Numbered from the stretch's first letter, positions 3,920-53,058 are shown. The stretch is DNA of 64,000 nucleotides from an uncultured Candidatus Saccharibacteria bacterium (GCA_964444955.1 CAYUJB010000001.1:1816-65815), one strand, 5' to 3'. A program made the numbers and translations. The notes: a model not told the origin generated them from the sequence alone.

Positions 3920-5608
3920 ATGGTACCTTCAGATATGGCAACGCCTCCCACTGACCCCAAAAAACGAGATGTAAATGCTGAACTCGAGGAAAAGTTGGCA
4001 TCCATTGGCCAGCACGAGCAAGAGTTGGCTGCGCAAACGCTCGCTACCGAACTCTCTCTCCCGTTTCTCAATCTCCAAGGCCTTCAAGTTGATCCCGCAG
4101 CACTCAAAGCAATCTCGGAGGACGAATCTCGCGCGTCTGGTGTTGCGCTTATCCAAGCTCACAGTGCAACTGGCGTTGCGGTGGCCCTTGATCCGCGAAC
4201 GCCCTCTGCGCAAGAAGTGCTGGCGCGCCTCAAAGATACATACGCCGATCTCAAGGTTGTCATTGTGTCCACCGAGACCATGCAATCGGTTTGGCAGCGC
4301 TATGCGACCATCAAGACGGTTGATGTGTTTGAGGTTGGTGCCATCGATGTCGATGACGCAGCGCTCGCAAACGCTACTGCATCTATCAAGAGCATCAACG
4401 ACATCAAGTCCAGGATGGATACCGTAGCAGTGACCGAGCTTTTTGAAATGCTCATCGCCGGAGCGCTCTCCACGCGCTCGTCGGATATTCACTTCGAGCC
4501 CGAGGCGGAAATTGTTCGCCTACGCTATCGCCTCGACGGACTCCTCCATGAAGTAGCCACGATCGATAAAGTGCGATACCAGCGCGTGCTCAATCGCGTC
4601 AAGGTACTCTCGAAGATGAAGCTCAACATTACCAAGGCGCCACAAGACGGACGCTTTACCATTCGCCAGAGTGATATCGCCATCGAAGTGCGCGTCTCGG
4701 TGCTCCCCAGCGAATATGGCGAGTCGATTGTGATGCGACTTCTCGACCCTCGCGGTATTCAGGCAAAACTCGAAGATCTCGGAATGCGCCCCGATGTGCT
4801 GGCAAAGGTCAAAGAGCTGCTCGCTCGTCCCCAGGGAGCTCTCCTCACCACAGGACCAACCGGCTCTGGAAAAACCACCACCCTCTACGCGTTTCTCAAC
4901 TTCCTCAACACTCCCGACATGAAGATCATTACAGTTGAGGACCCTATCGAATACCACATCACGGGAGTCAACCAAACACAGGTAGATCCATCGAAGGGTT
5001 ATACCTTTGCGGGAGGATTGCGTGCAATCGTACGCCAAGACCCCGATATCATTCTTATCGGAGAAATACGCGATCTCGAGACTGCCGGTATCGCACTTGA
5101 AGCAGCGCTCACCGGACACATGGTGCTCTCGACCATTCACACCAATGATGCAGCGGGCACCGTGCCACGTCTTATTGATATCGGTGTGCGTCCTGATACG
5201 GTCGCACCCGCACTCACTATGGCGATGGGCCAGCGCCTGGTACGAAAACTCTGCGAGGAGTGCAAAAAAGAAATCCCCTTGAGTGCTGCGGACAGTGAAA
5301 AACTTCAGGCCAGCCTCAGTGGACTCACTGAGCGCTTTGGACTGGCCTCGTTGACCGCCGGTCTTAAAATCTTCGGCCCCGTCGGCTGTGAGGCCTGCAA
5401 CCATATTGGATACAAGGGCCGCATTGGAGTGTACGAGGTATTCGAAGTTACCCGTTCGATGGAGCGCCTTATTCTTGATGCGGCATCCGTGACCGATATT
5501 CGTGACCTGGCTATCAAAGAAGGGATGGTCACGATGGTGCAGGACGGATACCTAAAACTCCTCAACGGAATCACGTCCATTGAGGAGCTCAGGAGAGTGT
5601 TGGGCTAG
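3920..5608 (+). CDS. pilB: type II secretion / type IV pilus assembly ATPase, GspE/PilB family
   Basis: 562 aa. Has a T2SSE_N-like N-terminus, Walker A GPTGSGKTT, Asp/His boxes, and a tetracysteine motif CEEC...CEAC typical of PilB/GspE. Confidence 0.85.
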   Translation: MVPSDMATPPTDPKKRDVNAELEEKLASIGQHEQELAAQTLATELSLPFLNLQGLQVDPAALKAISEDESRASGVALIQAHSATGVAVALDPRTPSAQEVLARLKDTYADLKVVIVSTETMQSVWQRYATIKTVDVFEVGAIDVDDAALANATASIKSINDIKSRMDTVAVTELFEMLIAGALSTRSSDIHFEPEAEIVRLRYRLDGLLHEVATIDKVRYQRVLNRVKVLSKMKLNITKAPQDGRFTIRQSDIAIEVRVSVLPSEYGESIVMRLLDPRGIQAKLEDLGMRPDVLAKVKELLARPQGALLTTGPTGSGKTTTLYAFLNFLNTPDMKIITVEDPIEYHITGVNQTQVDPSKGYTFAGGLRAIVRQDPDIILIGEIRDLETAGIALEAALTGHMVLSTIHTNDAAGTVPRLIDIGVRPDTVAPALTMAMGQRLVRKLCEECKKEIPLSAADSEKLQASLSGLTERFGLASLTAGLKIFGPVGCEACNHIGYKGRIGVYEVFEVTRSMERLILDAASVTDIRDLAIKEGMVTMVQDGYLKLLNGITSIEELRRVLG

Positions 5609-39218: not shown

Positions 39219-39842
39219 ATGAGTAATGTGCTTGATTTGAAGGATCATCAGCCGGGCGATGCGGTGCCCGAGCAGTTAGTTGCCGAAGTTGCGCCACTCG
39301 CGATTGCGCAGACCACATCGATCGACGAGATGGGTGAGATGCAAAGCGAAGGGTTGCCGCCAGCGACGTTGGCCGGTTTTCATTTTCCCACCGCCACTGA
39401 ATGGACGGCGCATCATCCTCTCCAGGGTTCAGCGCGCAAGCGCCACATGCTTTTCTCTGGGCTCATCGTACTGTTGGGCGTTTTGATTTCACTCTGGCAG
39501 CGCAGTCCCGCAGCGTTTATCGTGCTTCTTATCGGTGCTGGTGTACTCGAGCTACGCGAGCATATGAGTAAGCCCATGACCGTTGGCGTCGATGATCGTG
39601 GCATCAAGATTGATGATCATCGCTATGACCACGCGTCGTTTTCGTCATTTCACATTCACCGTATGCCAGATGATACGCTCGAGTTGAGTCTCCGTTCAGA
39701 TCAGCGCTTCCTCCCCCATCTACGCTTGCCGCTGGGCCAGCAGGATCCTCATCAGCTCCACGCTATTCTTACCCAGTACATTCCCCAGGGCGATCACAAG
39801 ATCCCGCTGGTGGACTACCTGATTCGGAAGCCGCGGGAGTAG
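39219..39842 (+). CDS. membrane protein, possibly a bacterial PH (bPH_2-like) domain protein
   Basis: 207 aa. Two adjacent TM helices (LFSGLIVLLGVLISLW, AAFIVLLIGAGVLEL) followed by a roughly 90-aa soluble domain. Confidence 0.35.
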   Translation: MSNVLDLKDHQPGDAVPEQLVAEVAPLAIAQTTSIDEMGEMQSEGLPPATLAGFHFPTATEWTAHHPLQGSARKRHMLFSGLIVLLGVLISLWQRSPAAFIVLLIGAGVLELREHMSKPMTVGVDDRGIKIDDHRYDHASFSSFHIHRMPDDTLELSLRSDQRFLPHLRLPLGQQDPHQLHAILTQYIPQGDHKIPLVDYLIRKPRE

Positions 39843-40391: not shown

Positions 40392-41495
40392 ATGAAATAC
40401 ACATCAGTCGTTGCCGTTTTCGCCGTTGTATTGACGGCCTCTGTCGCTTCGGCGCAGCCGCCGGTCAAGCCGATCGTCTTTGCTGGTCCGTCCGGCAAAC
40501 AGCTGTGCGCCGCCGCTCTCGCATCCGGCAATTACCGGGTGTACGAGCCGACGTACTTCAATCTCCACGACCGAAATCCCACCAACGGGATGGATCGGAT
40601 TCGTGTGCAGCTCGAAGTCGACATGTGTATCAAGATGCGCATTGTCGGCGGCGTGCAGTTCGTCGTGCAGCGTGCCGGGACCTGGTTTCGTGCTCTGAAA
40701 ATGAGCGACGGTTCCTTGGCCCTCTACGCTCGCGATGATTGCGGCAACGAAGTTTTCGATGTCAGCTTTCCCGCTCCCCCGCTCCCAGTTGAGCCCCAGC
40801 GGTTGGTCATTCCGGAAATCGTATCGCAACCCGAGCGTCCTCGGCAGTTGATGACGCCGGTTGTGATCCAACCGCCTCCCCCTCCTGACGACGAAGAGGA
40901 GAGCGAGGGCGATTCTCGCTGGGGCATCACGGCTGGTGCAATGCTCGGCGAGTTTGACTCCGTTCCTATCGGGCGTGCAATCAACAGGATCTCGGGCCGC
41001 ACCGTATGCATGAAGGGTCGCGAGTTTGATCTGGGCGTGGCGCACGGTGACGTCGAGTCATCGGTGTGGCGACTCACCTTCGCTCTCAAATCGATCCGCG
41101 AAGGATCGTTTACCCAGCGTGACTGTCCCAACTGTGGTGAAGAGGTCAAAACGATTGCATCATCGGGGGTGCACGTCCTGGGAGTTCAACTCGAACGGCA
41201 ATTCCGCATCTCAGTACACGAAGGTCGTGGCATCCAGCCCATGGTGGAAGTCCACGTGGGTGCTGGCCTCATCAGTGGTAAAGCGCACGAGCAAACGCTC
41301 CGCAATTCCGTTGTCACCGCAACGCGAAATGTGGATGCAAGCGCGCTGATGAACTCCAAGGTCTTCCCCATCGCAGGGGCGGGTGTCGGCTTCATGGGTG
41401 CACTCAGTGACCATGTCGGCTATGCCGTCACGGTGGCAGGCATTGAGTATCCCGGTCGGTACTACGGGCGCATCGCGCTCACGTACTGGCCGTAA
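40392..41495 (+). CDS. secreted protein with a poly-Pro/acidic linker (hypothetical)
   Basis: Signal peptide MKYTSVVAVFAVVLTASVASA, then a PPPPPDDEEESEGD segment. The C-terminus ends in the aromatic TYWP. Followed by a terminator at 41518-41545. Confidence 0.5.
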   Translation: MKYTSVVAVFAVVLTASVASAQPPVKPIVFAGPSGKQLCAAALASGNYRVYEPTYFNLHDRNPTNGMDRIRVQLEVDMCIKMRIVGGVQFVVQRAGTWFRALKMSDGSLALYARDDCGNEVFDVSFPAPPLPVEPQRLVIPEIVSQPERPRQLMTPVVIQPPPPPDDEEESEGDSRWGITAGAMLGEFDSVPIGRAINRISGRTVCMKGREFDLGVAHGDVESSVWRLTFALKSIREGSFTQRDCPNCGEEVKTIASSGVHVLGVQLERQFRISVHEGRGIQPMVEVHVGAGLISGKAHEQTLRNSVVTATRNVDASALMNSKVFPIAGAGVGFMGALSDHVGYAVTVAGIEYPGRYYGRIALTYWP

Positions 41496-41598: not shown

Positions 41599-42156
41599 TT
41601 ACCGCGTTGCCTGCACGATCGTTATGGTCTTGCCGGCAATCATTCCCGTGACCGTTCGAGCAGGTCCCGAGTTTCCCGATATGAAGAAGTTCGTACTTCC
41701 CTTCCCCAACCCAGACGCCCCACTCGTGATGATTACCCATCCTGGGTTTGAGTTCAGGCTTGCGGTCCACGGACAGTCGGCTCTCGACGCAGTTACCTGG
41801 AGGACTCCGGGCCCTCCTTGATATCCGATTGTGAGCGTAGGATCAACCTTGAGCGTACACGCAAGTGTCGGCGTCGGCGTTGGTGGTGCTGGGGGTGGCG
41901 TCGACTGTGGAGGCGCCACGGTCGGCGTAGGAGCCGGCGGCCGAGGCGTCGGCTGTGGAGGCGCCGGCGTAGGCGCAACCGTCGGAGGTCGCGGCGTCGG
42001 GGTTGCTGTCACTGACGGCCCTGATGGTGTACCGCAGCCGTCCTTGTCGCACCCGCATCCGGGCACGACGACAACGACACAAAGAACGATGATGAGACTG
42101 ATTGTTCGGAATAGACGTGAGATCACGGGCTTCCCTCCTGGGTTGTTAAAAAGCAT
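41599..42156 (-). CDS. secreted protein with a Pro/Thr-rich linker and a C-terminal beta-rich domain
   Basis: N-terminal TM/signal (ISLIIVLCVVVVVP), a roughly 60-aa PT-rich linker (PTPRPPTVAPTPAPPQPTPRPPAPTPT), and a 100-aa C-terminal domain. Confidence 0.5.
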   Translation of the reverse strand: MLFNNPGGKPVISRLFRTISLIIVLCVVVVVPGCGCDKDGCGTPSGPSVTATPTPRPPTVAPTPAPPQPTPRPPAPTPTVAPPQSTPPPAPPTPTPTLACTLKVDPTLTIGYQGGPGVLQVTASRADCPWTASLNSNPGWVIITSGASGLGKGSTNFFISGNSGPARTVTGMIAGKTITIVQATR

Positions 42157-42334: not shown

Positions 42335-43615
42335 ATGAACATAAAAACCTCGTTTTTGCAGGGTTTCCGAGTATCAACCGTTATGGGACTTTTGAGCCTT
42401 CTTTTACTGTCTCCGCTCATGTTCGTGCCCCAAGCTAACGCCGACACTCTTTTGGTGTCTGCTGGGCTGACCGCTTCCCCTGGTACGATATGTATCGGCC
42501 AGTCGACGCATTTGAACTGGACATCTACGAATGCCACAAGCATCGTCATCAGCCCAGGGGTTGGCTCTGTTAACCCGTACGGAGGATTGGATGTGTATCC
42601 TACTCAGACTACGACATATACCATCACCGCGAGCAACACTACGGGCGGATATGGTTCATCGAACACCGGATCGGTTACGGTGTACGTCACTGGTTCTTGC
42701 GGCACCCCCACCCCTACTCCGTACAACAACGCACTCTACTGCTCGGCTACCTACTCCTACGCAAACTCTGGTGACCTCGTTTCCTTCAACGCATGGGGTG
42801 GTAACGGTACCTTCTCGTGGAATGCGACCGATGGTACCCCTTCGTACGGTTACGGTTCTTCCTTTTCGTCCCGCTTCTACAACCCGTCCTGGTACTCGGT
42901 GAGCCGTATGGTGACGGTCACGAGTGGCTATCAGACTGCCAACTGCAATGTGACCATCTATGCCGGTGGTACGACATGGACACCAACCCCAACGCCCTGG
43001 GTGAATCCCGCAGTTGATCTTGCGTTAACACAGGTTGGCCGCAACGTGACCCGTGGGCAGAGTGGTGAGTATGCTTCTTTGACGGCTCGCGGTGGCGACA
43101 CACTCGACCTGATCGTGCGCACGCGCTCGGTGAACAACTCGTACCTCTACAACACCTTTGTGACTGAGCAGCTCCCTACCGGTTTCAACTACATCCCTGG
43201 TTCTACCACGGTCAATGGGTATGTTGTTGCCGATGGTATCACCTCGACCGGCATCAATGTGGGTACTGTTGCTCCGTATGCACAGACAACCATCAAGTTC
43301 TCGGTTCGCGTTGATGGTGCCTACGTTCCTACCTGGGGCACTACGACCGTCAACAGCATCGCACAGGCACGCGCCGACAATGTTGTGACGCGCTCGGTAT
43401 CCTTGCCGATTACCCTCGGATCAAACGCGAGTATCGCAAACATTTCTTCCGTGAAGACCGGTCCTACCGACTCGCTCTGGCTCGCCCTCATGGTTGCCTT
43501 TTTGGCAACGGGTGCTTACGCCGTGTACCTGCGCACTGATCGTTTCGGTCGCCGCATGGCGCTCGCCGAAGTCGCTACACTCGCTCGCACCTCCGGTCCG
43601 AACTTTGTGAAGTAA
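42335..43615 (+). CDS. cell-surface protein with an Ig-like domain, a DUF11-like domain and a C-terminal VKTGP-TM sorting signal
   Basis: Signal peptide. Cys-bracketed Ig-like domain (CSATYSYANSGD...ANCNVTIYAG). DUF11-like block (RGGDTLDLIVRTRSVNN...EQLPTGFNYIPGSTTVNGY). C-terminus SSVKTGPTD, then TM LWLALMVAFLATGAYAVYL, then RTDRFGRR. Confidence 0.6.
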   Translation: MNIKTSFLQGFRVSTVMGLLSLLLLSPLMFVPQANADTLLVSAGLTASPGTICIGQSTHLNWTSTNATSIVISPGVGSVNPYGGLDVYPTQTTTYTITASNTTGGYGSSNTGSVTVYVTGSCGTPTPTPYNNALYCSATYSYANSGDLVSFNAWGGNGTFSWNATDGTPSYGYGSSFSSRFYNPSWYSVSRMVTVTSGYQTANCNVTIYAGGTTWTPTPTPWVNPAVDLALTQVGRNVTRGQSGEYASLTARGGDTLDLIVRTRSVNNSYLYNTFVTEQLPTGFNYIPGSTTVNGYVVADGITSTGINVGTVAPYAQTTIKFSVRVDGAYVPTWGTTTVNSIAQARADNVVTRSVSLPITLGSNASIANISSVKTGPTDSLWLALMVAFLATGAYAVYLRTDRFGRRMALAEVATLARTSGPNFVK

Positions 43616-43636: not shown

Positions 43637-43669
43637 AAAACCACCCACTCTACGGGGTGGTTTTGTTTT
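43637..43669 (+). terminator. Rho-independent terminator (AAAACCACCC-actctacg-GGGTGGTTTT plus gtttt)
   Basis: 10-bp stem followed by a T-run. A TATACT -10-like hexamer at 43672-43677 follows directly, ahead of the sortase gene. Confidence 0.5.
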
Positions 43670-43683
43670 GGTATACTACGTCT

Positions 43684-44340
43684 ATGCGTCTTCACCATCG
43701 CGGGCGGACGATTGCTATTCGCTTGTTTGTTATTTTCATTATTACCTTTGCCGGAGCGTTTTTCTTGTTGAACATTAAGTTTGTCGAAAAGAACGTGCAG
43801 TACATTCTGGCGCCCAGCACCATCACGTCGCGCGACACGCTCGGTGACGCAATCCGCCTCCTCCCCCTCTCTGAGAAGATCGAAGAGAAACCACTTTCCA
43901 ACAAGGCGACACTCGTGATTGATAAGCTGGGCATTCGCGCGCCCATCGTGTTCAATGTTGCCAACGACAACGACACCATCTACAAGCAGCTGGAGCAAGG
44001 TGTGGTGCATTATAGCGACACCGCCAAGCCGGGACTCCCCGGTGTGTCCATTGTGCTGGGGCACAGCTCTGCTTACCCGTGGTACAAGGGCGACTACGGT
44101 GCGGTCTTTGCGCTCTTGAGCAAGCTCGCTGTGGGCGATCGTTTCTATGTGCAGTACGACGATAACCGCACGTTCGTGTATGAGATGACGCAGTCGCTCA
44201 TTTTCAACCCCTTCGTCAAAGACGATCGCCTCACCGCACTTGAGAACGCACCAGGAAGCACTCTGCTTTTGATTAGCTGCTACCCGGTGGGAACGAACTA
44301 CAAACGTATTGCGATTCAGGCGATACTAGTGAAGATATAA
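43684..44340 (+). CDS. sortase (class uncertain)
   Basis: N-terminal TM anchor. Catalytic His in SIVLGHSSAY, Cys in the TLxTC-like STLLLISCYPVG, and Arg in YKRIAIQAILV. Start set to ATG 43684 because the ORF-track start at 43657 lies inside the upstream terminator. Confidence 0.75.
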   Translation: MRLHHRGRTIAIRLFVIFIITFAGAFFLLNIKFVEKNVQYILAPSTITSRDTLGDAIRLLPLSEKIEEKPLSNKATLVIDKLGIRAPIVFNVANDNDTIYKQLEQGVVHYSDTAKPGLPGVSIVLGHSSAYPWYKGDYGAVFALLSKLAVGDRFYVQYDDNRTFVYEMTQSLIFNPFVKDDRLTALENAPGSTLLLISCYPVGTNYKRIAIQAILVKI

Positions 44341-44366: not shown

Positions 44367-46421
44367 ATGAATGAGCGCCTCGAGAGTATTCGAGAATTTT
44401 TTCGAGAAAATCCACGCATGTGGATTGTGGCTGTTGGCGCGGTGCTCATCGCCGGTGGCGTCGCGTGGTATGTATTCCGTGGAACGTCGGTTGATCTTGG
44501 TAAATCGAATGCCCAACAGAGTGGCGGAGTTTGTGGTGACGGGGTGTGTGATGTAACAGAAGATAGCACATGCCCATCAGACTGTGGTCCCGGAACAGGC
44601 GGGGGTGGAGGCGTTGTTTGTAGTGCGACATTTCGATCGTGCCAAGGCACCGATGTGTTTCAGCACTACTCAAATTGCAACGGAGCTATCATCGAGCAGT
44701 GTGCAAGCGGGTGCAATCCGGGTAACGCCGATAACACCGCGGCTTTCTGTATCGGATCTTCGACGACACCGGGAATCACGCCGAAGGCTACACCCCCAAC
44801 CCCCCCACCTCCTACTCCGAGCGGCGACTGCACCAAGGGAGCAGATGGGTTGTGGTACTGCAAAAACCTGTCCTGTGGTCTAGCGGGCAATGGCTCCAAT
44901 CCCCCTGCAGGCCCGGCCAGTAGTATCCAGGTAGTCCAGTACCGCACCGTGTGTGACGACGTCGAGGGTCCTAATAATCCTCAAGTTGGGTGCAAGATCT
45001 TTATGGATGCGACGCCAAAGATTGGCGGACAAGAAGGATATCCACCACGAGATCCGTCCTGGAGCTGCACCAACTCGATGACCATCCCCGAGACCGACGG
45101 TCGCTACTGCTACACGCCATTTGGGAAAACAACCGTCACGGGTCCGGTGACCTGCTGCGCCAACACGGGACTACCGGGTGATTGCGTTTCATTTACCGTG
45201 CAACCCCGGTCGGGAGGCACCACGTCCCCCACCGCCAGCCCTGCGCCTGCGCTGCTGAAAGTCTCGTGCAGCGCAAACGCGGCAACGCTCACGTGGAATA
45301 TTCCTGCGCGTGCAAACTCGAATGCCGTGCAGCGTATGGTCCCCGGTGGTACGTGGACATGGGTGCTCCAAGACGCTACGGGAGCGCAAACTAGCTTTGT
45401 TGATTCGCCCTTGATCGCGGGTGCGCAGTGGCGCGTGAAGTCTGCGCCAAGCGTCGCGTCCAATGTGGTTTCCTGCGCTGGTCCGGTGAGCACACCCATT
45501 TCTGGTATTCCGCCCGCACAAGGCGATCCGGTTGAGTGTTTTCCCGCTCGTCAATCAGTGAGTCTCAATGAGACTGCACATCTGCAGGCGCAAGGCGGTA
45601 CGAATGTGTTCACGTGGAATGTGACGCAAGGAGGAGCAATTCAGGAGGGTGGCAACGAGTACATCGGTGTGTCATATCGTACATCTGGATTGAAAACATT
45701 ACGCGTCAGTAGTGGCGGCACGAGCGCAACGTGCACGATCGATGTGGCCGGAAGCATCGCGGGTGGTTCGCCGACGCCAACGCCTTCAAGTACCGTTGCC
45801 CCAGGACAGGCGTCATTGGTAGTTGAGAAGACCGCGCAAAATACTACTACCGGAGATCCCGTTGAGCGATCAGCCGTTACGGTTTTTCCTGGTCAAACGG
45901 TACAGTTTCGAGTCCGAATTACCAACGTGGGGTCGGCGCCCGCTATCGGGGTGAGCGCAGAGGATACGCTCCCTGCTGGTATGAGTTTTGTACCAGATTC
46001 AACCACGTTGAATGGGCAGACCGTTTCGGATGATTCGATTATCTTTGGCGGGCTTACTGTAGGAACGGTCGCACCTGGAGCGTCTACCATTGTCGAATGG
46101 TCAGCTGTTGCCGATCAGGCGGCTACACTTGCTTCGGGTCCCAATCGATCTACGCCCGAAGTGGTGGTGACCACGGATAATACTGATACCGGTGGAACCG
46201 ACAAGACGCGGGCGCAGATGCCGGTGGTGGTGTATGGTGCCGGCTCATCGGCGGGTGCCGGCGAAGTTCCAACGGGTCCGGGAGGTGCAGTAATCGTGGC
46301 GCTTATGACGGCCGCTGCTCTCACCCTTCTCTACAGCGGCTACACACGCTCCCCTACGTATCGACGTCGTGAGGCAGAGGACGTGAGCGAAGATCCGGGC
46401 CCACTCGATTTTCGTAGCTAA
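44367..46421 (+). CDS. large surface protein (Cys-rich module, PT linker, Ig-like and DUF11-like domains) with a C-terminal EVPTGP-TM-YTRSPTYRRREAEDVSEDPGPLDFRS signal
   Basis: 684 aa. N-terminal TM (MWIVAVGAVLIAGGVAWYVF), PT linker (ITPKATPPTPPPPTPSGD), Cys-bracketed Ig-like repeat (CFPARQS...CTIDVAG), DUF11-like block (TVFPGQTVQFRVRITNVGSAPAIGVSAEDTLPAGMSFVPDST). Confidence 0.6.
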   Translation: MNERLESIREFFRENPRMWIVAVGAVLIAGGVAWYVFRGTSVDLGKSNAQQSGGVCGDGVCDVTEDSTCPSDCGPGTGGGGGVVCSATFRSCQGTDVFQHYSNCNGAIIEQCASGCNPGNADNTAAFCIGSSTTPGITPKATPPTPPPPTPSGDCTKGADGLWYCKNLSCGLAGNGSNPPAGPASSIQVVQYRTVCDDVEGPNNPQVGCKIFMDATPKIGGQEGYPPRDPSWSCTNSMTIPETDGRYCYTPFGKTTVTGPVTCCANTGLPGDCVSFTVQPRSGGTTSPTASPAPALLKVSCSANAATLTWNIPARANSNAVQRMVPGGTWTWVLQDATGAQTSFVDSPLIAGAQWRVKSAPSVASNVVSCAGPVSTPISGIPPAQGDPVECFPARQSVSLNETAHLQAQGGTNVFTWNVTQGGAIQEGGNEYIGVSYRTSGLKTLRVSSGGTSATCTIDVAGSIAGGSPTPTPSSTVAPGQASLVVEKTAQNTTTGDPVERSAVTVFPGQTVQFRVRITNVGSAPAIGVSAEDTLPAGMSFVPDSTTLNGQTVSDDSIIFGGLTVGTVAPGASTIVEWSAVADQAATLASGPNRSTPEVVVTTDNTDTGGTDKTRAQMPVVVYGAGSSAGAGEVPTGPGGAVIVALMTAAALTLLYSGYTRSPTYRRREAEDVSEDPGPLDFRS

Positions 46422-46494
46422 AATGTTGATATGTCGGTGTATAAGAAATCTCCCAGGGTGTATACTCAAGGGAGATTTTCTTAATCGTATATCC

Positions 46495-46932
46495 ATGAAT
46501 ACACGGCAAACCATTCTCGTATCGATTGCAATTCTTCTTGTCGCTGTACTAGCTCTCTGGTGGTACTTCGGATTTTCGCTTGAGTTTATGAAATTCTTTG
46601 CCGCCGATTCAGCAACAACCAATACTGCCACCACGAGTGCGTCCCCTACAGTTTCACCATTGGGAGATAATTCTACCGCAAGTGTAGTAGTTGCCTGCTC
46701 GCCGCGCCTACAGAGTGTAAAGACCGGTGTGGCTGCGCAGTTCACCGCCAGTGGTGGATCTGGCAGCTATGAATGGTTCGCACCAAGTGGCACGCCAGAT
46801 ACCGGAACCGCGAAAGACTTTTCGGTAGTGTATACAGTGGCGGGTACCAAGAAGGTCACGGTGCAAGCTGCGCGGGGAGATGATTCAGGGAAAGTAGACA
46901 GCGTTGAGTGCACGGTACAAGTGGCCCCATAA
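46495..46932 (+). CDS. small anchored protein with the GFSLEFMKFFAA N-terminal motif and one Cys-bracketed Ig-like domain
   Basis: Start at ATG 46495 (MNTRQTILVSIAILLVAVLALWWYFGFSLEFMKFFAAD). Single domain CSPRLQSVKTGVAAQFTASGGSGSYEWFAP...VECTVQVAP. A TATACT hexamer lies at 46461-46466. Confidence 0.5.
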   Translation: MNTRQTILVSIAILLVAVLALWWYFGFSLEFMKFFAADSATTNTATTSASPTVSPLGDNSTASVVVACSPRLQSVKTGVAAQFTASGGSGSYEWFAPSGTPDTGTAKDFSVVYTVAGTKKVTVQAARGDDSGKVDSVECTVQVAP

Positions 46933-46939
46933 TGTGAAC

Positions 46940-49021
46940 ATGCAATCACCCCTCTCAGTAATCGCGGCATTCTTTCGTGCTAATAAGACATTCTTTACGA
47001 TTCTCTTGGGAGTCGTATTCGTGACCGCCGGATACTTTTGGTGGCAGGCAGGATTCACGCTGGATGTGAGTCGTTTCTTTGCGGCAGGTTGCGATGCTGA
47101 GCAGCTCAACGGTACATTTCGTCGCGGGCAAGTTTCGATCGTCAATAATAATGATTCCACGTGTGATGTGCACGTAACGGTGTGGGAGGTGTATTACCCG
47201 GCATCTGATCCACGTTTTATTAGTACCCAGGTGCTTTTCGATCAGGCATATGAGGGGTCGGTGGCACCCGGAGCCACTGCCACATTATCAGTGGATATCC
47301 CGGACTGTGTGTACCAGTATGATATTGGAACCGGAACGCCGCGCAGTACCCTCCCCTACGGATACGATCTTATCGATAGCGGTATCGTTTCACCCACCGG
47401 CTTGTACTGCGGCGAAACGGGTCCGACTCCAACCCCAACTCGTACCCCAACCCCATCCGTGTCTCCGACCCCGACACCTATAGCACTTGCGTGTGCAGTG
47501 GTACCGACGCAAGTTGTCGTGGGTTCGCCTGCAACCGTTACAGCAACGGGCGGCACCGGCGCGTACACCTGGTCTGCACCTGGCGGCACACTATCTTCGA
47601 CTACTACAAATCCTGCCAATGTCTCCTATGCAACTGCGGGCAGTAAGACGGTGACTGTGACAAGCGGTGGCAATCAAAACACCTGCTCGGTCGTGGTTGT
47701 TGCCGTGACGTTACCAACTCCTACGCCATCTGTTTCTGCATCGCCGTCTCCGACGGTTTCCCCACTCACGTGCGCTCCTTCGAGTCAGACAGTGGCTATT
47801 GGAGCTCAGGTACAAGCCGCGTCATCTGGCGGCGGAACGCAGATCTATAGTTGGTCTGCACCTGGAGGAAATCCGAGTACGTCCACGAATACCGGCTCTT
47901 TGTTTACCACATCGTATGGTGCCGCGGGCAGCTTCATAATTACTGTTACTGGTGGCGGGCAGAGCGCTACGTGCGCAGTGACGGTGCAGGGCCCCACGGC
48001 ATCCCAGCCGCATATCTTACTAACGAAACTTGCAAGAAATATCACCCATGGCTCCAATGAAGCCGACAGCGTTACCGCTTCACCGGGTAATGATATCGAG
48101 TTCTCGCTCCGCGTTCTCTCTGATGGTGTCGGCACGGTGGTGGGAGCAACCATTCGCGACGCTCTTCCGGCAGGCCTGACCTACGTTCGGGGATCAACGA
48201 GAATTGATTCCGCAACTGCCGCGGACGGCATCGTTTCCACAGGACTCGCCCTGGGCGATATAGCAGCCGGGCGCGCAATCACGATTCGATTCCGCGCCCT
48301 CGTATCCCCTGCTTCGTTCTTTGCTGCCGGAACCAGCGTGCTCACCAATACTGCGTATGCGCGCGGCACGAATACGCCAGAAGTGAGTGATGTCGCGTTT
48401 GTTTCAGTGATGAACGCTCCAGCGCAGCTAAGTGCTTCTCTTGCCAAGATGGGCCGTAACACCACGCGCGGTGAAACTGGTGAGCATTCGCCCGTTCGAT
48501 CCTCTCCAGGTGAGACGATTCAATTTGTATTACGAGCTCGCAATACGTCCTCGGGGACACTAACCAACGTTCTACTACGAGATATTCTTCCTTCGGAGAT
48601 TACGCTTGTTCCGGGTAGCGTTCGTATTGGCACCACGACTGCTTCAGACACGCTCGTGACCACAGGTGCATCATTGGGAACGCTCGTGCCAGGACAGGAG
48701 GTGCTCGTTACCTTTTCCGGAGTCGTAGCTGCAGCCGGAGCTCTTCCTGCAGGAGCTACTACGGTGCTTAATACTGCAACGCTTATGGGAACCGGAATCG
48801 GTACTATTACCGCGCAGCTGCCAGTCGTGATTACGAATGGTGGCGTTGCGGTGCCACCCGTGAACACTGGCCCCGCTGAAACCACTATGCTTGCACTTAT
48901 CATTTCCGCAGTCGTTACACTGCTCTACGTGGGGTATACGAGTACGGATACGTATCGACGACACGAAGCGAGCATACTCGCACAAGAGTCGCGCAACGAG
49001 CCATCTGATTTTAATTCCTAA
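46940..49021 (+). CDS. large surface protein: GFTLDVSRFFAA N-terminal motif, PT linker, two Ig-like repeats, DUF11-like domains, C-terminal PVNTGP-TM-YTSTDTYRRHEA signal
   Basis: Start at ATG 46940 (MQSPLSVIAAFFRANKTFFTILLGVVFVTAGYFWWQAGFTLDVSRFFAAG). PT linker PTPTPTRTPTPSVSPTPTP. Two Cys-bracketed repeats (CAVVPTQ..., CAPSSQT...). Tail SILAQESRNEPSDFNS. Confidence 0.6.
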   Translation: MQSPLSVIAAFFRANKTFFTILLGVVFVTAGYFWWQAGFTLDVSRFFAAGCDAEQLNGTFRRGQVSIVNNNDSTCDVHVTVWEVYYPASDPRFISTQVLFDQAYEGSVAPGATATLSVDIPDCVYQYDIGTGTPRSTLPYGYDLIDSGIVSPTGLYCGETGPTPTPTRTPTPSVSPTPTPIALACAVVPTQVVVGSPATVTATGGTGAYTWSAPGGTLSSTTTNPANVSYATAGSKTVTVTSGGNQNTCSVVVVAVTLPTPTPSVSASPSPTVSPLTCAPSSQTVAIGAQVQAASSGGGTQIYSWSAPGGNPSTSTNTGSLFTTSYGAAGSFIITVTGGGQSATCAVTVQGPTASQPHILLTKLARNITHGSNEADSVTASPGNDIEFSLRVLSDGVGTVVGATIRDALPAGLTYVRGSTRIDSATAADGIVSTGLALGDIAAGRAITIRFRALVSPASFFAAGTSVLTNTAYARGTNTPEVSDVAFVSVMNAPAQLSASLAKMGRNTTRGETGEHSPVRSSPGETIQFVLRARNTSSGTLTNVLLRDILPSEITLVPGSVRIGTTTASDTLVTTGASLGTLVPGQEVLVTFSGVVAAAGALPAGATTVLNTATLMGTGIGTITAQLPVVITNGGVAVPPVNTGPAETTMLALIISAVVTLLYVGYTSTDTYRRHEASILAQESRNEPSDFNS

Positions 49022-49022
49022 T

Positions 49023-50807
49023 ATGCAAATTCCGCAAAAATTGAAAGATGCATTCGGTGTGGTGCAGCAGAAATTCTCCAGTGTATTTGATGCAACGCTG
49101 CGTTTCTATCGAGCCAACACTGCGATATCACTGAGCGCATTTACGATTTTTAGCGTATTGCTGATCATGTGGGCACGCATCGGATTTACCTTTGACGTGA
49201 GTCGCTTCTTCGCAGCAGAGGTGCATACCCCATCGGCACTCAACGTGCAGTGCGGTGCAACGCAGAATGTACTTACCTGGACACTGCCCGCGGGACATGA
49301 TTCCAATAGCATCATTCGAAACGTCGATGGTGGCACTGGTGTCTGGGTGTGTGGTGGGCCAAGCAATATCGCTCCCTGCACAACGCTCTCGGTGGCAACC
49401 TATACTGATAGAAATATCCAACCAGGACACACGTATGCCTATCGACACAAGGCGTGGGCGGATACGCCGTCAAACACCGTGACCTGTTCGACGGTTACTG
49501 CACCCACCCCGACTCCTTCCACAACTAGTACACCGACGCCGACGCCATCGCTTACCCCCACTCCCACACCACTCATTCCTCCCGCGGGGACCATTCTTGG
49601 CGCTTGTACTGGTGGTCGAAATCCAGTTATTACGGTACGTTACAGTAAGTTTCCTCCCCCAGGCGGAGATCAGACCGTCAACAGCAATGGCATGAACAAG
49701 ACCACCACTCCATTGGGTGGCACACCGACCGTGGTGCAATTGCCAGATTATAATCCTGTCGATCGAGGGCAATATTGGGAATTTCAGGATTCGCAAGTCA
49801 TCAGCGGCTATACCTATTCGTATCGAGCCAAATACACGCCAGCAGTGGGCACGAATACCATTACGTTTGTCGCATCAGAAGCGAATTGTGGTCCGTCGCT
49901 TCCTCCTCCGAGTCCCACGCCGTCTACAACCCCGACACCGATCTCCACACCGACACCGAGCGCAACACCCACTCCCTCCCCCACGCCACTGGTGTGCGCA
50001 CCCGCAACCCAGACAGTAGCGGCAGGCCAGGTGTTCTCGCTCACTGCGCAGGGTGGTACCGGGGTATATCAGTGGACCTACGGTGCATCGCAGACTGCTA
50101 CCGGAGCGGCATTGGTGACATCGCTCGCCACACCGGGGACGAGTGGGATTACACTCACATCTGGCGGTCAGTCGACAACCTGCCAGGTAATTGTACAGCC
50201 GGCGGTTGTAGCTCGAGGTACTGCAGCAGTTTCTAGTACGGGAAAGAACGTCTCAACGAATGGTGTCGAGTCTTCTTCAGTTCAGGTTCGTACCGGCCAG
50301 CAACTTCAGGTGCTGATACGCGCTCGGAATGCGGCAACACAAGCAAATATTACTGGCGTTCTGGTGCGCTCGCAGCTCCCCGAAGGTTTAGTATATGTAC
50401 CCGGATCAACGCTTATCGCAGGAGTTGCGGCAGGAAGCGACGTAATCGTCACCACGGGGCTACCCCTTGGCGCTATTGGTCCTGGTCAAGAAATTCTCGT
50501 AACGTATCGCGCGACAGTGAATGCCGCTGCCTTTGCGGTTGGTACGACAGGCGTACGCGTGCAATCATCCGTGCAAGCCACTGACGTGCCAGGTGCAAGC
50601 GATGATCTTGATGTTGTCGTGACAAAGCCGACGCCCGGCACATCGGGGACGGTCCAAACTGGTCCCGGCGATGCGCTCTTGGCGGCATTTCTGGTCTCGT
50701 CAATCATCACACTGCTCTACGTCTCCTACACGCATACATCGACATACAAGCGTCACGAGATTGGGGCGATTACTGAAGATCGTGACCCCCTCGACTTCAG
50801 AAGCTAA
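49023..50807 (+). CDS. large surface protein: GFTFDVSRFFAA N-terminal motif, PT linkers, Ig-like repeat, DUF11-like domain, C-terminal TVQTGP-TM-YTHTSTYKRHE...DPLDFRS signal
   Basis: Start at ATG 49023 (MQIPQKLKD...) one nt after the upstream stop. The ORF-track start at 48891 overlaps the previous gene. Motifs TFDVSRFFAAE, PTPTPSTTSTPTPTPSLTPTPTP, CAPATQTVAAGQ...CQVIVQP. Confidence 0.6.
   Translation: MQIPQKLKDAFGVVQQKFSSVFDATLRFYRANTAISLSAFTIFSVLLIMWARIGFTFDVSRFFAAEVHTPSALNVQCGATQNVLTWTLPAGHDSNSIIRNVDGGTGVWVCGGPSNIAPCTTLSVATYTDRNIQPGHTYAYRHKAWADTPSNTVTCSTVTAPTPTPSTTSTPTPTPSLTPTPTPLIPPAGTILGACTGGRNPVITVRYSKFPPPGGDQTVNSNGMNKTTTPLGGTPTVVQLPDYNPVDRGQYWEFQDSQVISGYTYSYRAKYTPAVGTNTITFVASEANCGPSLPPPSPTPSTTPTPISTPTPSATPTPSPTPLVCAPATQTVAAGQVFSLTAQGGTGVYQWTYGASQTATGAALVTSLATPGTSGITLTSGGQSTTCQVIVQPAVVARGTAAVSSTGKNVSTNGVESSSVQVRTGQQLQVLIRARNAATQANITGVLVRSQLPEGLVYVPGSTLIAGVAAGSDVIVTTGLPLGAIGPGQEILVTYRATVNAAAFAVGTTGVRVQSSVQATDVPGASDDLDVVVTKPTPGTSGTVQTGPGDALLAAFLVSSIITLLYVSYTHTSTYKRHEIGAITEDRDPLDFRS

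Positions 50808-50895: not shown

Positions 50896-53058
<2,163 letters not shown>

Follow-up and report, generated by a model that had tools for sequence, protein, structure and literature searches.

A conserved box behind the N-terminal hydrophobic segment of surface proteins in a sortase operon of the Candidate Phyla Radiation

Members of the Candidate Phyla Radiation (CPR, Patescibacteria) are ultra-small bacteria. Surface appendages play a central part in their life, which they spend attached to other cells, and little is known of the export and assembly of CPR appendages. The present study deals with a stretch of 64,000 nucleotides (one strand, GCA_964444955.1 CAYUJB010000001.1:1816-65815; in the following the window) that is assigned to an uncultured Candidatus Saccharibacteria bacterium, and in particular with a tight row of plus-strand genes at 42.3-50.8 kb, which code for protein E, a sortase and the proteins A, B, C and D and are followed by recG at 50896 (Table 1). 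A previous reading made from the DNA alone (the sequence-only reading) had described A to D as an array of proteins with a common motif next to an N-terminal transmembrane (TM) helix. This array is a sortase operon with five substrates and one small extra protein, B; V-x-T-G-P signals are listed for A, C, D and E.

Table 1 Features of the sortase operon and its N-terminal modules (N-modules) in the window. Positions are counted from the first nucleotide of the window; arrows mark cleavage sites.
Feature	Position	Strand	Description	Basis
Two-TM protein	39219..39842	+	207 residues, PH-like C-terminal part	TM hairpin in sequence; PH-like by sequence only
Protein E	42335..43615	+	Sortase substrate; ordinary signal peptide ..VPQANA↓DT; C-terminal V-K-T-G-P + TM + tail from nt 43451	
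Sortase	43657..44340	+	TM-anchored; His in HSSAYPW, Cys in LISCYPVG, Arg in NYKRIA	Pfam Sortase, E=5e-19
Protein A	44367..46421	+	Degenerate N-module nt 44367-44516; PKD-like domain; one CLIPPER/DUF11 domain; V-P-T-G-P + TM + tail from nt 46266	PKD-like by sequence resemblance
Box equivalent of A	44481..44516	+	Residues G39-Q50, GTSVDLGKSNAQ	Gapless alignment to orthologues
Protein B	46495..46932	+	145 residues; N-module nt 46495-46605; Ser/Thr-rich linker; one PKD-like Ig domain; no C-terminal anchor	
Box of B	46570..46605	+	GFSLEFMKFFAA, in WWYFGFSLEFMKFFAA	
Protein C	46940..49021	+	693 residues; N-module nt 46940-47086; PKD + two CLIPPER/DUF11 domains; V-N-T-G-P + TM + tail from nt 48860	
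Box of C	47051..47086	+	GFTLDVSRFFAA, in WWQAGFTLDVSRFFAA	
Protein D	49023..50807	+	594 residues; N-module nt 49023-49217; Ig-like repeats; V-Q-T-G-P + TM + tail from nt 50652	
Box of D	49182..49217	+	GFTFDVSRFFAA, in WARIGFTFDVSRFFAA	

The layout of a sorting signal (V-x-T-G-P, a hydrophobic segment and an R/K-containing tail) was found in A, C, D and E as well as in 48 database homologues; the four proteins are thus predicted substrates of the adjacent sortase, and V-x-T-G-P is a variant of LPXTG. A scan of the operon proteins against NCBIfam gave no match to an LPXTG-anchor model. The sortase has a conserved start M-R-L-H-H at 43684 and scores below the cut-off of every NCBIfam sortase class; its orthologues are 52-75% identical and are present in every sufficiently long related locus. 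Matches to DUF11-type repeats lie below the curated cut-off in E and just under the NCBIfam cut-off in D, and the Pfam match of the PKD-like domain of B falls just below the cut-off. DUF11, an isopeptide domain similar to CnaA that characterises fibrillar adhesins and pilins, is now named CLIPPER (PMC12617251). Protein E, the orthologues of which all have canonical A-x-A sites, is an internal control for a normal signal peptide within the operon.

The N-module shared by A to D comprises about 45 residues and consists of a short cytoplasmic tail, an uncharged stretch, an invariant Trp, three to four further residues and a box of 12 residues with the consensus G1-F2-[ST]3-[LF]4-[DEQ]5-[FIV]6-x7-[RK]8-F9-F10-A11-A12, so that the box is preceded by W-x3(4). 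A, C and D have an additional cytoplasmic motif, F-[FY]-R-[AE]-N-[RK], ahead of the TM segment. The layout is tripartite in the manner of the n-, h- and c-regions of a signal peptide, with R/K before the hydrophobic stretch and the polar or charged D5..R8 after it, and this distribution of charges predicts an N-in/C-out topology with the box on the outer face of the membrane. Conservation was assessed with sets of 41, 125 and 137 unique modules, of which the 125 were extracted by pattern; the Ala11 count stems from a hidden Markov model (HMM) alignment. The uncharged stretch before the Trp has 17 +/- 1 residues in 92 of 95 sequences. Information amounts to ~4 bits at each of G1, F2, F9, F10 and A11, drops to 1.2-1.6 bits at positions 13-14 and is less than 1 bit from position 15 onwards, where the members continue with unrelated linkers rich in Ser/Thr/Pro or in Cys. 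Ala11 is present in 135 of 135 sequences, including the degenerate copies (protein A of the window, which lacks all three Phe, and L005). With regard to a bond behind Ala11, Phe occupies position -3 (F9) in 94% and position -2 (F10) in 93% of the sequences, and F9 is otherwise replaced by Ser (8 sequences from several lineages, A of the window included), Leu (2) or Ile (1). Pro is never found at position 12 (0/125) and accounts for 6-39% at positions 13-18. In comparisons of the four paralogous families with each other, identity is 56-62% in the box and 13-22% in the 20 TM residues before it; within families the TM core reaches 35-51% and exceeds the passenger in A, C and D (D: 51% vs 21%). 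The best conserved box is that of B (83% pairwise identity). As the sequence-only reading had pointed out, the box has no A-x-A site, Phe being at -3 relative to either Ala.

For the proteins that start at 46495, 46940 and 49023 (B, C and D), the sequence-only reading had placed the motif correctly with respect to position, frame and location just after the hydrophobic segment. The weaker copy that it had noticed in A was also recovered and aligns without gaps to the orthologues as G-T-S-V-D-L-G-K-S-N-A-Q; all three Phe are lost, Ala11 is kept and Ser stands at -3. A orthologues elsewhere have the full box (..FQFEIGRFFAAE). The box of L005, the closest relative found for A of the window, is also degenerate (GFSAGPSQFLAAA). 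Because the box of A in the window is degenerate and there is now a canonical site K-S-N-A↓Q at the aligned position, the box seems to be dispensable for export in one paralogue.

In a six-frame translation of the window the pattern GF[ST][LF][DE]..[KR]FFAA occurs three times as compared to 3.6e-7 expected occurrences. The genes are tandem paralogues, and one might assume that the box has no function and represents a remnant of recent tandem duplication or a product of wrong start codons, much as in the two conditions that the sequence-only reading itself had named as refuting it. We give this assumption next to no credence and regard it as already refuted by the results for orthologues and synonymous sites and by the profile searches. 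The three DNA copies of the box differ at synonymous sites (GCC/GCG/GCA, CGT/CGC/AAA, GAG/GAT/GAC), and conservation therefore acts on the protein and not on a DNA repeat. Orthologues beyond the local duplication keep the motif, and the box persists across orthologues with passengers only 21-37% identical (over the shorter sequence) and in ~100 cluster representatives. Start codons downstream of the motif are incompatible with its conservation: orthologues start at the equivalent Met, independent gene calls share the starts, and protein C as called from 46940 is identical in sequence to the database protein P0005, an independent gene call in a public protein collection.

The distribution of the operon was determined by a scan with a back-translated pattern of one genome per GTDB species and by a separate scan of metagenomes. 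The operon (sortase, substrate with an ordinary signal, module genes A-D, recG) recurs in 4 GTDB genomes and on 11 metagenome contigs. The four metagenome-assembled genomes are labelled Paceibacterota, Yanofskybacteria (two) and 'Saccharibacteria', and each has orthologues of E, A, B, C, D and of the sortase; recG is present in all but one contig, which ends before recG. RecG is 60-67% identical to RecG of the window, and the passenger parts of A-D are far more diverged. L007 and L012 derive from groundwater (Hainich well H41). The metagenome contigs L013 and L014, from more distant relatives, have reduced operons in which only one or two sortase substrates are encoded, one of them with the box. 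L013 (4394-5275) and L014 (2033-2917) also code for a protein of ~293 residues with N- and C-terminal TM segments just before the sortase, which is absent from the operon of the window and which, by eye, looks like a CAP/SCP (PR-1-like) domain protein (YFAH.SP.G..PWHWF...Y.YAGENL).

Against an index of 5.8 billion proteins, a 3-sequence N-terminal profile gave no match and a 19-sequence profile gave 4 fragments only. An exhaustive HMMER search of 1.84 billion protein cluster representatives was needed because the word index evidently misses most members; its profile was composed of the window sequences and four database fragments. This search yielded 102 matches at E<=1e-3, about 100 of them true, and all but three lie within the first ~70 residues; P0094, an exception, is a true member with a longer N-terminal tail. 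P0097, a repetitive and unrelated multi-TM protein, was rejected, and so was P0082, an odd protein with two copies of the box, as a credible member. In P0082 (116 aa), HWNSAGFSLELSRFF[TA]G occurs twice, ~40 residues apart and outside any recognisable operon protein; this entry may be a mis-assembled or frame-shifted fragment. The remaining matches comprise 48 proteins with C-terminal x-T-G-P + TM + tail, ~40 B-type small proteins with a PKD domain and no C-terminal anchor, and fragments. Wherever the length of a locus allows a judgement, the module is part of the same type of operon. No Pfam or NCBIfam model covers the module, the named members are annotated by NCBI as hypothetical proteins, and our literature searches retrieved no paper that describes it. 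The best explanation is that the module belongs exclusively to one sortase-dependent operon for surface proteins in a narrow CPR lineage (Paceibacteria/Yanofskybacteria-type).

We tentatively favour, with somewhat less than even confidence, an interpretation of the module as a specialised, unusually long signal sequence with a predicted cut after the invariant Ala (F-F-A↓A), in which the rest of the box is a determinant of timing or specificity that is read by a shared partner. The sequences show that the module exists, that it is conserved, where it lies, that it belongs to the operon and that a canonical site is absent; the topology, cleavage itself, the position of the cut and the responsible enzyme are what we infer here. 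The hydrophobic stretch would be inserted N-in/C-out via Sec, which would place the box on the outer face of the membrane, and the N-terminal segment would then be removed after Ala11 (..R-F-F-A↓A-E-P..) by an activity of the type I signal peptidase kind. With a long hydrophobic stretch in front and bulky Phe residues at -3/-2, the site would be poor, slow or selectively recognised, so that the precursors could stay tethered by their N-termini during folding and capture by the sortase. The remainder of the box, with ~35 bits far above the need of a signal peptidase, would be read by a partner common to all four families. The sequence-only reading had left open processing by an unknown protease; we keep processing as an option but not a wholly unknown protease, because the last residues of the box resemble a site of the signal-peptidase type, with the presumed cut behind position 11.

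To our knowledge, all well-studied sortase substrates shed their N-terminal signal, and YSIRK-type signals illustrate that such substrates can carry conserved signal-peptide motifs. Because F9, when replaced, becomes Ser in several lineages, the site turns into S-x-A↓, which is a textbook -3/-1 site. The A-type structure model discussed below, with a helix that ends at the Trp pair and a non-helical box of low confidence, is also counted for cleavage. The invariance of Ala11, which even the degenerate copies keep, and the collapse of conservation right after the end of the box point to cleavage after Ala11; positions 12-14 (A, E, P) resemble what normally begins a mature protein, and G1 and the G/S/N at position 7 would suit a helix that breaks off ahead of an extended c-region. 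Signal peptidase I is blocked by Pro at +1 (PMC9282373; PMC10269814), and we likewise count the absence of Pro from position 12 and its frequency from position 13 in favour of a cut after Ala11. An aromatic residue beside such a site is found in TasA (T-W-A↓A-F), which is cleaved poorly by LepB and needs a dedicated peptidase; aromatic residues next to an Ala↓Ala bond can thus render a site selective (PMC10269814).

A number of observations weigh against cleavage and several of them speak for the main alternative, in which the N-terminal helix stays in the membrane and the box on its outer face binds a common partner, either the TM-anchored sortase of the operon or the sister boxes; we consider this possible, on balance rather unlikely. 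The docking surface would be formed by an aromatic stripe F2-[FIV]6-F9/F10 together with the pair D5/R8, A to D would be gathered into one assembly platform, and B would be a permanent membrane-tethered subunit with a PKD domain. Phe at -3 and -2 is atypical for signal peptidase I and is the kind of change that prevents cleavage: A. oris SrtA was no longer cleaved once its A-x-A had been changed to F-F-F (PMC9282373). Signal peptidase I needs neither an absolutely invariant Ala11 nor a conserved -2 position, and it reads far less information than the box holds. Protein B would be released as a free PKD domain if it were cut, and it has no other means of retention despite having the most conserved box. 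Within a family the TM core is conserved, and in A, C and D it surpasses the passenger in this respect; each family has a TM core of its own while the box is common to all four, as expected for one common or homotypic partner. The hydrophobic segment has the length of a TM anchor and carries the invariant interfacial Trp at a fixed spacing. From the last cytoplasmic charge to Ala11 there are ~32 residues in comparison to 19-24 in the four ordinary signal peptides of the window (QANA↓D in E and VASA↓Q, PALA↓K and PASA↓Q in three other exported proteins); the housekeeping peptidase evidently uses canonical sites, and the module is therefore something different. Precedents for a docking motif are provided by the small TM protein SafA, which binds a sortase via an exoplasmic FPW mini-motif (PMC9282373), and by a membrane-embedded FLIAG motif in sorting signals that decides on the position in the pilus (PMC11389406).

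On the other hand, sortase substrates held at both ends would be without known precedent, and anchoring at both ends would prevent the extension of a pilus and the projection of N-terminal domains. An uncleaved anchor leaves unexplained why Ala11 is kept in A of the window without Phe, why Ser replaces F9 and why Pro is excluded at position 12 only. The juxtamembrane segment of the sortase differs in L013/L014 while the box is unchanged; covariation is thus not apparent, with a box too invariant and loci too few to reveal it. Whether the box is treated as helix or as strand, its hydrophobic moment is not significantly above that of shuffled sequences (p = 0.41 at 100 degrees and 0.84 at 170 degrees), and the idea of an amphipathic helix or strand was dropped. 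The sequence-only reading had framed the proteins as either anchored at both ends or processed; this framing stands, but the first part does not apply in general because the B family has the N-module and no C-terminal anchor.

Structure predictions by AlphaFold2 do not decide between a cleaved and a retained segment since the models of B and of an A-type protein conflict. In protein B (mean predicted local distance difference test (pLDDT) score of 87.7) the box continues the TM helix in a single helix 3-36 that ends at F-F-A, with pLDDT falling from 98 to 69, which counts for an anchor and against a cut; a disordered linker and a confidently predicted PKD domain follow, and the best Foldseek matches are PKD domains. 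In the A-type protein P0075 the TM helix extends no further than the Trp pair and is followed by an unstructured box (pLDDT 47-71), which speaks against a docking motif.

The search for peptidase genes covered the conserved neighbours and the membrane or N-terminally anchored open reading frames (ORFs) of the window (not every ORF) and one step beyond each window end. Neither the conserved operon nor the scanned window ORFs nor the flanks (~13 kb in all) contained a gene for a processing peptidase, which is a further point against the cleavage that we favour; only YidC, FtsH and an M23 peptidase were detected and no S26, rhomboid, site-2 protease (S2P) or prepilin peptidase. The same result bears on the idea that a dedicated protease other than a signal peptidase, e.g. 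an intramembrane protease of the rhomboid, site-2 or CPBP type, reads the whole box, which we hold to be improbable. Such an enzyme would account for the surplus of information over the need of signal peptidase I and for Ala11 and F10 being more invariant than a -1/-2 pair requires, and the small P1 together with a large hydrophobic P4 (F9..A12) is partly like the motif of bacterial rhomboids. However, dedicated sorting proteases are usually encoded beside their substrates, and no such gene was present in the regions searched. In addition, P2' of a rhomboid substrate should be hydrophobic and is Pro or polar here, and rhomboids act on N-out helices whereas the helix of the module is predicted to be N-in from its charge distribution.

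The string G-F-T-L-(D/E) had reminded the sequence-only reading of the cleavage site of type IV prepilins, with the hydrophobic helix on the wrong side. The local string and the reversed order are correct, and the window does contain a gene for an ATPase of the type II secretion system or type IV pilus kind (3920-5608, Pfam T2SSE listed for the identical gene). A class III signal that is cut by a prepilin peptidase at G↓F and followed by pilin-like assembly is nevertheless very improbable. In all 125 unique modules the hydrophobic segment is located before the motif, the acidic residue is at +4 and not at +5, and the motif is predicted on the outer face, while prepilin peptidase cuts pilins at the cytoplasmic end of their hydrophobic segment. 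The four module proteins gave no match to an N_methyl or type IV pilin model of Pfam and NCBIfam at E<=0.01, and the passengers are sortase substrates of 500-1000 residues. The likeness is superficial, neither homology nor a common mechanism follows from it, and it is best read as a coincidence. A Tat signal and a lipobox were ruled out, as there is no twin arginine and no conserved Cys. Lys8 as a sortase nucleophile was also discarded, this position being mostly Arg. The CPR 'Pam' pilus (bioRxiv 10.64898/2026.03.03.709456), a donor-strand-exchange system of Saccharimonadia with ordinary signal peptides, is unrelated.

A more radical prediction, which we consider quite improbable, takes the box for a genuinely new sorting signal that acts together with the sortase and starts from the cleavage F-F-A↓A. 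Sortases normally use the free amine of a wall cross-bridge, and the N-terminal Ala exposed by the cut might act as nucleophile in its place, so that A, C and D would be joined head-to-tail by Thr-Ala peptide bonds into a fibre. Protein B, because it has an N-module and no sorting signal, could be an acceptor only and would be the obligate chain end. In a less radical version all subunits may be tethered by the N-module and form a staple between membrane and wall instead of a pilus.

The module marks a discrete and easily recognised set of sortase-dependent surface proteins that are now annotated as 'hypothetical', and it is a practical search key for the operon in metagenomes. For Sec and signal peptidase alone, much less information in the export signal would suffice. 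If the cleavage site is regulated or selective, as our favoured interpretation implies, the module would be a new example of control of surface assembly that is encoded in a signal peptide, beside the YSIRK and SipW types; as a retained anchor or docking motif, it would provide the first example of sortase substrates that are fixed at both ends.

Some observations concern the regions next to the module and the operon. An alignment of 36 sequences of the B family has only four invariant residues in the ectodomain, namely Cys68, Cys139, Gly117 and Lys119, and Asp135 is nearly invariant; Cys68 and Cys139 likely form a disulfide, and the invariant Lys in a strand of the Ig-like domain might serve a sortase as nucleophile or belong to a Lys-Asp cross-link. 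The otherwise unrelated linkers behind the box contain in some members a module with four Cys (PPGC[YT][YC]Q.[VI]QC...PC[DN]P.L[VI]CPS), sometimes twice (P0017, P0023, P0036, P0041, P0042 and P0093 of the B family; P0033, P0090), which matches no family searched. Upstream of E, the protein encoded at 39219-39842 gave no match in a Pfam scan, and in L001, L002, L004, L010 and L013 a homologue immediately precedes the E gene; it is possibly the first gene of the operon, a membership suggested by synteny alone. In the window two extra genes, 40392-41495 and 41599-42156 (minus strand), are inserted between this gene and E. The ORF at 41599-42156 looks like a lipoprotein (..VVVVPGCGCDKDGC..) and contains a long stretch rich in Pro, Thr and Ala; its overlap with several long ORFs on both strands is typical of a region with compositional bias and is no evidence for extra genes.

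Where ordinary sorting signals have no more than a few basic residues at their end, those of the operon (43451-43615, 46266-46421, 48860-49021 and 50652-50807; also L001-L015 and P0005-P0104) have unusually long and conserved cytoplasmic tails, which fall into two classes, ..LLY[VST][GSA]YT..Y[RK]R.E....DP[LM]DF[RK]S in A, C and D and ..YTR[ST]..FGRR.A.AEV..L.R..G.NF.K in E. The two classes might specify different fates, by analogy to a FLIAG motif inside the sorting signal, which can specify the position in the fibre of A. oris (PMC11389406).

In comparison to known systems, the operon of the window resembles sortase-dependent pilus and fibrillar-adhesin operons with stalk domains of the CnaA/CnaB type (CLIPPER/DUF11) in that a dedicated sortase lies beside several substrates with Ig-like and isopeptide-type domains and with sorting signals at the C-terminus (PMC12617251). 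It differs from pilus operons by V-x-T-G-P in place of LPXTG, by the long conserved cytoplasmic tails, by a sortase below the cut-off of every NCBIfam class and by an N-module on four of six exported proteins (five substrates and B), of which B is without a sorting signal. Like protein B, SafA of Actinobacteria is a small single-pass protein that is genetically linked to a sortase, and its outer-face aromatic motif mediates sortase binding (PMC9282373). Protein B, however, has no FPW and no sequence similarity to SafA, it contains a PKD domain, and its box is shared with the sortase substrates themselves. Type IV prepilins (G↓F-T-L-I-E) have a five-residue string and a hydrophobic helix in common with the module but differ in the order of both, in the side of the membrane and in the acidic offset.

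Closer parallels are offered by signal peptides with motifs of their own. SipW-cognate signals (TasA, CalY/camelysin; ..G-T-[WF]-A↓[AYF]-F..) have, like the module, aromatic residues beside an Ala↓Ala-type bond in surface or fibre subunits, and the aromatics at the cleavage region make them poor substrates for the housekeeping peptidase (PMC10269814). TasA has the aromatic residue at -2 and a small residue at -3 whereas the module has Phe at both positions, and SipW is encoded in the operon of its substrates whereas a peptidase gene was found neither in the module operons examined nor among the scanned window ORFs; the SipW-type signal model gave no match in the NCBIfam scan. The YSIRK-G/S and KxYKxGKxW signals of Gram-positive LPXTG proteins are, like the module, family-specific conserved motifs in the N-terminal export signal of sortase substrates, and the YSIRK-type motif is thought to route or time secretion without being needed for Sec targeting itself. 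It is located at the n/h boundary on the cytoplasmic side and its signals end in ordinary A-x-A sites, unlike the module with a box after the hydrophobic core and on the outer side. The motif F-F-R-A-N-R in the n-region of the module is only loosely reminiscent of YSIRK; the motif [YF]SIRKxxxGxxS is not present in the aligned n/h regions, and the NCBIfam scan gave no match to a signal-peptide model. Conserved motifs in the signal peptides of sortase substrates (YSIRK-G/S, KxYKxGKxW, SipW-cognate) are thus of a known kind, and what is new here is a motif after the hydrophobic core that is confined to one type of operon in a narrow CPR lineage and is shared with a protein that lacks a sorting signal.

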